A stretch of DNA of 64,000 nt from Eledone cirrhosa (Eukaryota), in NCBI GenBank assembly GCA_964016885.1, contig OZ024741.1, positions 83,700,001 through 83,764,000 on the forward strand, read 5' to 3'. Below are positions 4,441-6,324 of this stretch, piece by piece (position 1 is the stretch's first letter; each line of letters begins with the position of its first letter). Position numbers and translations under genes: made by a program. Under the pieces are notes generated by a model. The model saw only the letters and a program-made list of their open reading frames with translations. It had not been told where the DNA came from and did no database searches.

Positions 4441-4947
4441 AATTAAGTTAAAAATGTACATCCACATATGTATACTGAAATACTAGTATGCATATGAATA
4501 CACACACGTATACATATGTAGATGTACCAAGTTTTTCACTGGTCACTTTACTGTGAGTGTGTTTCCTCAAAAACCAGTATGACTCTAAAAACCGGTTTGT
4601 CTGTGTGTTTACATACAGAATAGCTGGACACTCACAGTAAAGTGACCAGTGAAAAACTTGGTACATCTACATATGTATACGTGTGTGTATTCATATGCAT
4701 ACTAGTATTTCAGTATACATATGAGGATGTACATTTTTAACTTAATTGTTTAAGCGTCAGTCATACAAAAGTGAGTTACAAACGAAACGAAATTTAATTT
4801 CGTTTCGTTATTTGTTTTTATCGTCTCCGTTGAACCGGTACGTACTCACGCTCTATGCAAATTAGTCTGCCCACTACTAATTTTCATAGAAAAAGCATAT
4901 AACGATATGTGCTTTTACGATTCTCCAGAAAGGCCGGAAGATAGGTA

Positions 4948-4992
4948 AATATTGCTGATGAGTTGTAACAACAACGAAACTAGTTCAATATT
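4948..4992 (+). ncRNA. Type I hammerhead ribozyme (family A)
   Basis: AATATTG-CTGATGA-GTTGT-AACA-ACAAC-GAAAC-TA-GTT-CAATATT: 7-bp stem I, 5-bp stem II, palindromic ACTAGT stem III, GUU cleavage triplet. Confidence 0.85.
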
Positions 4993-5413
4993 CCTTGTCT
5001 GGCTTTCTGGAGAATAGAGGAAAGGTGTTTCCTCAAAAACCAGTATGACTCTAAAAACAGGTTTGTCTGTGTGTTTACATACAGAATAGCTGGACACTCA
5101 CAGTAAAGTGACCAGTAAAAAACTTGGTACATCTACATATGTATACGTGTGTGTATTCATATGCATACTAGTATTTCAGTATACATATGAGGATGTACAT
5201 TTTTAACTTAATTGTTTAAGCGTCAGTCATACAAAAGTGAGTTACAAACGAAACGAAATTTAATTTCGTTTCGTTATTTATTTTTATCGTCTCCGTTGAA
5301 CCGGTACGTACTCACGCTCTATGCAAATTAGTCTGCCCACTACTAATTTTCATAGAAAAAGCATATAACGATATGTGCTTTTACGATTCTCCAGAAAGGC
5401 CAGAAGATAGGTA

Positions 5414-5458
5414 AATATTGCTGATGAGTTGTAACAACAACGAAACTAGTTCAATATT
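5414..5458 (+). ncRNA. Type I hammerhead ribozyme (family A)
   Basis: Identical motif to 4948-4992. Confidence 0.85.
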
Positions 5459-5884
5459 CCTTGTCTGGCTTTCTGGAGAATAGAGGAAAGGTGTTTCATC
5501 AAAAACCAGTATGACTCTAAAAACCGGTTTGTCTGTGTGTTTACATACAGAATAGCTGGACACTCACAGTAAAGTAAAGTGACCAGTGAAAAACTTGGTA
5601 CATCTACATATGTATACGTGTGTGTATTCATATGCATACTAGTATTTCAGTATACATATGTGGATGTACATTTATAACTTAATTGTTTAAGCGTCAGTCA
5701 TACAAAAGTGAGTTACAAACGAAACGAAATTTAATTTCGTTTCGTTATTTATTTTTATCGTCTCCGTTGAACCGGTACGTACTCACGCTCTATGCAAATT
5801 AGTCTGCCCACTACTAATTTTCATAGAAAAAGCATATAACGATATGTGCTTTTACGATTCTCCAGAAAGGCCAGAAGATAGGTA

Positions 5885-5929
5885 AATATTGCTGATGAGT
5901 TGTAACAACAACGAAACTAGTTCAATATT
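5885..5929 (+). ncRNA. Type I hammerhead ribozyme (family A)
   Basis: Identical motif to 4948-4992. Confidence 0.85.
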
Positions 5930-6324
5930 CCTTGTCTGGCTTTCTGGAGAATAGAGGAAAGGTGTTTCATCAAAAACCAGTATGACTCTAAAAACCGGTT
6001 TGTCTGTGTGTTTACATACAGAATAGCTGGACACTCACAGTAGAGTAAAGTGACCAGTGAAAAACTTGGTACATCTACATATGTATACGTGTGTGTATTC
6101 ATATGCATACTAGTATTTCAGTATACATATGTGGATGTACATTTTTAACTTAATTGTTTAAGCGTCAGTCATACAAAAGTGAGTTACAAACGAAACGAAA
6201 TTTAATTTCGTTTCGTTATTTGTTTTTATATATATATATATATATATATATATATATATATATATATATATATATATATATACAATATATTAATAAATGG
6301 AAACTCTATTTATAAAACCATAAT

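Follow-up and report, generated by a model that had tools for sequence, protein, structure and literature searches.

Non-LTR retrozymes of metazoans are tandem, non-coding units of a few hundred nucleotides and low G+C content, and each unit carries one type I hammerhead within a strongly self-paired monomer (Cervera and de la Pena 2020, PMC7229834; Li et al., preprint 10.64898/2026.07.22.740005). They occur in thousands of copies in genomes that also hold Penelope-like elements (PLEs). The retrozymes themselves, their circles and a proposed rolling-circle step have already been described (PMC7229834, PMC7761336), and the preprint of Li et al. links retrozymes to the pLTRs of PLEs in vertebrates. 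Rolling-circle copying and mobilisation by PLEs are treated in this literature as likely but unproven for animal retrozymes.

Insertions of EN+ PLEs, such as Poseidon of the green anole, consist of partial tandems with an inverted, 5'-truncated copy and a tail at one end; they target microsatellite or AT-rich DNA, and a hammerhead lies in the repeat (PMC8557442, PMC11167929). In vitro the anole PLE cuts and extends both DNA strands, with reverse transcription (RT) starting at two internal RNA sites whose spacing defines the tail, and its hammerhead mutants still insert, unprocessed RNA being the main substrate (PMC11167929). Some hammerhead variants of PLEs have a small palindromic helix III, and the strict minimal form (min-HHR) has a helix II of 7-8 bp, a helix I of 4-5 bp and an unpaired nucleotide that separates position 9 from 10.1; compensatory changes in genomic families of this type are also in print (Cervera and de la Pena 2014, PMC4209133). 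The Chlamys/MRC1 elements of Chlamydomonas are non-autonomous PLE passengers with multicopy head-to-tail insertions; their clade is described as lacking canonical hammerheads, and at their 3' ends such passengers are generally similar to the helpers (PMC8557442).

We analysed a window of 64,000 nucleotides from the 3.0-Gb genome of Eledone cirrhosa that contains two insertions of a repeat family, here called family A. Its units of 466-471 nt each carry a hammerhead motif, with 162 G+C among 466 positions, and they contain no ORF for an RT or an endonuclease, the longest stop-free frame being 60 aa when the unit is read circularly. In these respects, as in its self-paired monomer, its thousands of copies and the PLEs of the same genome, the family is like the metazoan retrozymes; its unit is longer than the 150-450 nt given in PMC7229834 and falls inside the 51-972 nt of the preprint. 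The excerpt of PMC7761336 presents the retrozymes as tandem repeats that lack any motif by which the helper could be recognised, whereas most complete insertions of family A are two inverted arms, one with a short and one with a long end. It shares its insertion anatomy with the EN+ PLEs but differs from them in its missing ORF, in that both arms can be long multimers, and in a tail of 74 nt compared with the published 30-40 nt. Unlike the Chlamys/MRC1 clade it has hammerheads, and in contrast to the usual 3' resemblance between passenger and helper, its monomer showed no similarity beyond TA-rich noise to the pLTR of a neighbouring PLE family, the only PLE family compared.

Layout of the array and its hammerhead motif

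The array at 4441-6229, called the window array below, is one insertion of the family (Table 1). The sequence-only reading had taken it for a plain tandem array, which it is not, since its left end (4441-4560) is an inverted arm, and had overlooked the main anatomical clue, the two inverted arms with a Penelope-type tail. It had also placed the second array at 46-47 kb, whereas this array extends from 45,731 to 47,456.

Table 1. Features of the family-A insertions and of the neighbouring PLE in the window. Unit position 1 corresponds to window position 4946; in unit numbering the stem II pair is 18/29, predicted cleavage falls after 40 and the tail is 269-342.
Feature	Coordinates	Strand	Remarks
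5'-truncated Penelope-like element	2501..4284	+	same architecture as family A; candidate helper
PLE inverted arm	2501-2783		within the 2501..4284 element
PLE C-terminal ORF, GIY-YIG-like	2690-3706		within the 2501..4284 element
Hammerhead-like motif in PLE pLTR	3970		within the 2501..4284 element
(TA)n target microsatellite, left flank	4284..4441
Inverted short arm	4441..4560	-	unit 149-268; ends at the 'short' 3' end ahead of the tail
Long arm	4559..6229	+	3.6 monomers; its 3' end is the 'long' one (unit 342)
Long arm, partial monomer	4559-4945	+
Long arm, monomers	4946-5411, 5412-5882	+
Long arm, terminal partial monomer	5883-6229	+
Type I hammerhead motif 1, predicted	4948..4992	+	swapped pair 4963/4974; predicted cleavage after 4985 (GUU)
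Hammerhead motif 2, predicted	5414..5458	+	swapped pair 5429/5440; predicted cleavage after 5451
Hammerhead motif 3, predicted	5885..5929	+	swapped pair 5900/5911; predicted cleavage after 5922
Tail	6156..6229	+	74 nt, with an inferred RT start site on either side; varies least within the family
Tail hairpin	6189-6217	+	inside the tail; carries the A-U/G-U variant
(TA)n target microsatellite, right flank	6227..6290
Second family-A insertion, long-end arm	45731..46714	-	A-T stem II, GUC
Second family-A insertion, short-end arm	46715..47456	+

The sequence differences first noted between the two arrays were all reproduced. Stem II reads GTTGT/ACAAC in the three ribozyme copies of the window array (CTGATGA at 4955, 5421 and 5892) and GATGT/ACATC in the four copies of the other array (46735 and 47199 on the plus strand, 46524 and 46060 on the minus strand). 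The complete motif is CTGATGA GTTGT AACA ACAAC GAAAC TA GTT in all three of the former and CTGATGA GATGT AACA ACATC GAAAC TA GTC in all four of the latter, and the cleavage triplets GUU and GUC are a fixed difference. Also fixed is AACGAAAC versus AACGAAGC, an A/G difference at unit position 308 in the tail hairpin, with position 324 as predicted partner; G is the majority state in 6 of the 88 loci covering this position. For the estimated 15-20 or so differences per monomer, an alignment of ten pieces showed that 14 substitutions and 2 indels are fixed between the arrays. Comparing full monomers, we counted 20-24 substitutions from one array to the other, 5 within the window array and 7 within the second.

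The proposal that each array was copied from one rolling-circle RNA template fared less evenly. Within-array homogeneity was confirmed and some other loci fit a circle well; against it stand two loci with pieces of another subfamily and the staggered private variants of the window array (87A, 245A, 335A, 457A and a 5-nt insertion), each common to two adjoining monomers. Variant 87A has six matches genome-wide, and the four outside the window are all without the 5-nt insertion. Because the staggered variants point to successive duplication or conversion, the window array is not a clean one-pass copy, and the best explanation is that later duplications or conversions reshaped it at its locus. 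Homogeneity itself is no proof of a circle, since a homogeneous linear multimer or DNA-level expansion would give the same result.

The predicted hammerhead consists of a 7-bp stem I, the core CUGAUGA/GAAA, a 5-bp stem II and a palindromic helix III, ACUAGU. In sequence and predicted fold it has the type I core CUGANGA/GAAA/NUH, three helices and the G10.1-C11.1 pair. Cofolding predicts that helix III pairs two copies of the window-array motif, but not of the GUC motif. The intact core, G10.1-C11.1 and this predicted pairing between copies resemble the PLE hammerheads of PMC4209133; compared with the strict min-HHR, helix II is shorter (5 bp), helix I is longer (7 bp) and the extra nucleotide is missing. 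An Rfam scan of the window at gathering scores gave no matches. The triplet ends in a base other than C in about 6,100 of about 7,800 monomers, and in U in all 100 among the matches listed. Cleavage at GUU is slower than at GUC. GUU is counted among the active NUH cleavage sites (PMC3138052).

Two-armed insertions and the neighbouring Penelope-like element

The loci sampled comprise 430 monomer pieces in 90 stretches, a non-random set that combines the best matches to the window array with the loci listed for the first 81 Mb of contig C1 and with others chosen for their rare stem variants. Complete two-armed loci account for 58 of the 90 stretches, 26 were scored as one-armed and 6 ran beyond the retrieved sequence. 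One short end (unit 262-276) is combined with one long end (338-344) in 50 of the 58, and the eight exceptions include truncated alignments and one chimera. The arms lie head-to-head with their 3' ends pointing outward into (TA)n, as in the window array, and the array at 45.7-47.5 kb has the same two ends swapped. Altogether 124 of 140 such short or long ends adjoin (TA)n. The inner junctions between arms are overlaps, blunt joins or insertions, with breakpoints scattered over the unit. Two loci outside (TA)n, L001 and L177, have direct repeats of about 15-16 nt overlapping the element ends, which by eye we read as target-site duplications with end microhomology.

Since short and long head-to-head arms are the PLE signature of two RT starts, family A is likely a non-autonomous Penelope passenger, that is, a non-LTR retrozyme. 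We hold this class assignment and the dependence of the family on PLEs with high confidence. A chimera at C4:54.54 Mb (L180:1626-3192) joins a family-A arm with a long end to a second arm that runs from family A into the endonuclease end and pLTR of the PLE and stops at the short end of the PLE. The chimera keeps the rule of one long and one short end, which hints at shared machinery; it could instead have arisen by deletion between neighbours.

The PLE that adjoins the window array has the same short and long ends and a tail of about 60 nt, which encodes the start of its own ORF. Its family has at least 130 near-identical matches, with intact frames of 1,217 aa elsewhere in the genome (L144, L148). 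These copies have an Asn-rich insert and a Cys-rich linker ahead of the endonuclease and thus appear Neptune/Nematis-like by the description excerpted from PMC8557442. Pfam returned no families for the 338-aa and 1,210-aa proteins of the neighbouring PLE, and a PDB search with the PLE protein returned a single weak RT match (E = 0.55). The PLE label is based on Atlas feature matches (0.96-0.97 to RT, GIY-YIG and HTH_animal clusters) together with visible motifs and the architecture.

The window contains further elements of this kind. A second tandem family at 43863-45691, with a 321-nt unit, also has two inverted arms and (TA)n flanks; its short and long ends are about 30 nt apart and its hammerhead-like motif begins UUGAUGA. 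Two more inverted-arm elements in (TA)n, at 6275-6703 and 6831-8450, have one short and one longer end, and each arm of the former contains a CUGAUGA motif. Within the window the two-armed architecture is common to the PLE and at least four different families. LINE-type copies, recognised by eye, lie at 19777-22799, 23603-25967, 26453-32039, 32666-34702 and 58312-61004, with endonuclease/RT frames of up to 936 aa and a 678-aa RT frame beside (AAT)n.

The stem II swap and constraint on the unit

Using an exact pattern that allowed any bases at two stem II pairs, we found at least 7,823 monomers genome-wide and none with the reversed control; this abundance is far beyond chance. Position 29 is T in 2,612 monomers, of which 2,606 have an A-T pair and the other six have T·T (3), C·T (2) or G-T (1). 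There are about 5,200 T-A monomers, a figure from which C or G at 29 was not separated out, and four monomers have A at 29 but not T at 18. A nearby stem position shows 27 variants, indels among them, so the rare stem II mismatches look like ordinary post-insertion mutations. When stem II types further removed were sought between the same flanks, all 27 matches were copies of the family, and contigs from four of the six listed sequencing runs contained only near-identical copies and no further stem II types.

A tree of one natural monomer per stretch (90 loci), with the root assumed at the midpoint or at the most divergent subfamily, leads from A-T/GUC through A-T/GUU to a single T-A/GUU clade, the key branches having supports of 0.78-0.82. 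Given this order, the triplet change and the pair change are separate events and the window array has the derived state. The copies fall into these three ribozyme haplotypes, with the rare U·U copies on the connecting background, and when A-T/GUU loci are compared with basal T-A/GUU loci, the shared sites differ at 18 and 29 only. At C1:149.585 Mb there is, on precisely the connecting A-T/GUU background, an A-T monomer succeeded by two neighbouring T·T monomers, and a T·T junction piece lies inside a basal T-A array at C3:146.2 Mb. The swap was likely a single compensatory event in a source lineage, which afterwards gave rise to thousands of copies, and it apparently passed through a U·U intermediate. 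We also considered a micro-inversion of the stem-loop as its source and rejected it; checked by hand, such an inversion does not turn one stem II into the other.

Two random substitutions would fall on one of 153 pairs and leave it Watson-Crick with a probability of 5e-4, or a few percent over the roughly 100 internal changes of the tree. By itself the swap is suggestive but not strong evidence for selection. As one evolutionary event it provides modest covariation evidence, and as compensatory hammerhead changes have been published (PMC4209133), the covariation first noted is ordinary.

The claim that selection acts on RNA structure has moderate support at the level of the family, where six pairs have changed on both sides; the single stem II event and the other tests lend it little. 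The monomer is predicted to fold at -161.4 kcal/mol (z = -12.5), and none of 100 shuffles folded as well. We examined covariation in 46 full monomers, from the 44 loci with one and the two arrays of the window. At pairs 18-29, 60-451, 73-88, 76-85, 150-165 and 151-164, each of two Watson-Crick types is present in two or more copies. These six compare with 1.30 expected when partners are re-dealt within pair type and relatedness is kept (P about 0.0006), and with 1-3 in slid controls; six were also reached in 94 of 500 of the tool's own shuffles. Four of the six pairs changed on one sub-lineage, the reference structure for the pair tests is a prediction from one of the aligned copies, and one long helix has unrepaired mismatches.

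Single changes were divided into spread variants, present in at least three loci, and private ones. At G-C pairs the ratio of pairing kept to pairing broken is 4/4 for spread and 26/27 for private single transitions, showing no difference, and at A-U pairs it is 10/7 and 11/18, a slight difference. A raw excess of kept pairing (24/18 vs 46/135, p = 1.6e-4) was discounted, because compensatory pairs and homoplasies are counted twice in it, and it fades once the data are split by pair type.

Spread variants occur at 3 of 82 sites in unit 261-342 and at 63 of 345 sites elsewhere (p = 5e-4), and private variants are distributed fairly evenly over the unit. In the ribozyme they occupy 0 of 11 core sites (p = 0.22) and 3 of 28 stem sites (p = 0.44), neither of which is significant. 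The clearest constraint is on the 74-nt tail region, which is more clearly conserved than the ribozyme. We consider it fairly probable that selection acts on transposing copies, with its strongest effect on the tail and a weaker one on the fold, stem II included.

RNA templates and rival explanations

Clustered A>G changes confined to one strand are a signature of A-to-I editing. At C2:95.69 Mb (L153 and L178; G000:C2:95,687,873-95,695,159) a monomer shows 33 differences from its neighbour, 26 of which are A>G on the ribozyme strand, and the edits are restricted to one cleavage-to-cleavage monomer. Seven hyper-edited pieces lie among ten nearly unedited ones in both arms, both arms begin in an edited monomer, and all five assembly matches to a marker of the edited monomer fall at this locus. 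Given this strand-specific clustering, there is good support for an RNA intermediate on the ribozyme strand. The simplest source of the locus is a circular dimer of an edited and an unedited monomer. The locus also has recombinant edited copies and nested variants among its unedited copies, so DNA-level turnover occurred there and a circle is not the sole route. No general A>G strand bias was found, either on internal branches of the tree (16 A>G vs 16 T>C) or among private variants (25 vs 45, two arrays left out).

Array length and variant sharing differ among loci. One young sub-lineage has arrays of about 20 and 25 full or near-full monomers, with both arms long and no internal substitutions, and higher-order repeats are seen in arrays that are long and older. 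Among 60 two-armed loci, 11 have variants common to only some monomers, across both arms, and at C1:58.93 Mb such variants are common to both terminal monomers. Variants fixed in all monomers of a locus (35 in 21 of the 60 loci) were dropped as proof of circles, as both sets that were tested genome-wide turned out to be sub-lineage markers, found in 7 and 4 loci. The sub-lineage of L059 and L171-L177 carries three clustered A>G in 69 monomers at 7 loci, with unusually long invariant arrays, and that of L155 and L161-L170 carries three clustered A>G in 10 monomers at 4 loci. Pieces from a different family-A subfamily occur in L021 (an inner piece of the plus arm), L053 and L175, suggesting template switching between RNAs or later recombination.

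Overall, family A is probably a young, protein-free 466-nt hammerhead family that is mobilised by the RT-endonuclease of a PLE and underwent a single stem II swap in its source lineage. Tandem transcripts would be cleaved by dimeric hammerheads, with the helix III palindrome pairing between copies, and ligated to circles, a step towards which we lean only slightly. Very probably the PLE protein would cut both strands of AT-rich DNA and start RT at two fixed sites flanking the tail, one per strand. Both RTs would copy towards the 5' side through monomers whose number varies, and the resulting two cDNAs would be linked head-to-head, either by short overlaps or with insertion of a few bases. A-to-I edits of the RNA may sometimes be written into the new copies, and DNA-level turnover of the array may follow insertion. 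We advance only tentatively the fuller proposal that two Penelope RTs start at both tail sites of one circular retrozyme RNA and travel around it repeatedly, the circle at C2:95.69 Mb having been a dimer of an ADAR-hyper-edited and a nearly unedited monomer.

It is conceivable, if somewhat doubtful, that a PLE performs the two-start insertion on an uncleaved linear multimer from a donor array, in which case the ribozyme would be largely dispensable and long arrays would reflect long donors and DNA expansion. The anole PLE inserts without hammerhead cleavage in vitro (PMC11167929), and the commonest lineage of family A has the GUU triplet. Array length clusters by sub-lineage, as in the 69 monomers at 7 loci, both clustered A>G sets mark sub-lineages and are not private to single insertions, and the partial sharing of variants across arms, for example at C1:58.93 Mb, also suits a linear template. 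Identical hyper-editing in repeated monomers of both arms, however, is hard to obtain by independent editing of a linear multimer, and circular forms of related retrozymes are seen in coral, mussel and axolotl (PMC7229834, PMC7761336); the 11 core positions without a spread variant also speak against this reading, although they are not significant alone.

Two other explanations bear on the changes themselves and on the spread of the arrays. A single template-switching step can bring back the pairing of a stem (PMC8794818) and A-to-I editing would turn A-U into G-U automatically, so the compensatory changes could reflect mutational mechanics and not selection, with a mismatched hairpin arm repaired by such switching. 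At unit 308 the change from A-U to G-U is an A>G and has arisen more than once on the tree, hyper-edited copies are present in the genome and the single-change tests are flat. We nevertheless regard this as unlikely. The U·U intermediate is present in the genome and the swap was therefore probably stepwise; T·T is found in only 3 of 7,823 monomers and both paired states are found in thousands, and the internal branches show no excess of A>G over T>C. It is highly improbable that the family is a satellite whose spread and homogenisation took place at the DNA level alone, by unequal exchange and conversion, and whose decaying ribozyme motif descends from a pLTR. The higher-order and staggered variant patterns of the long arrays and the window array are what such a process would leave, but dispersed insertions that have two fixed 3' ends, vary in their 5' truncation and target (TA)n, together with strand-specific A>G hyper-editing, need an RNA intermediate. 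As an account of dispersal the satellite explanation is largely refuted, and for array growth after insertion it is valid.

A literature search of titles and the starts of abstracts, with incomplete coverage, found no two-end rule or edited monomers for animal retrozymes, which does not prove their absence from print. For PLE-driven insertion of a hammerhead family, what this family adds is anatomy at the family level, in that the PLE signature of two RT starts is seen in a young, high-copy family. The conserved 74-nt tail is a likely RT-recognition element. Family A also provides a natural allelic series of A-U, U·U and U-A pairs and of GUC and GUU triplets, and its edited monomers mark individual RNA templates. 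With these the questions of the helper and of the circle are directly testable. If two RTs do travel around one circular retrozyme RNA, the family would offer direct genomic evidence of circles as the template of transposition, of PLEs as the helper and of editing that feeds mutations into the family.
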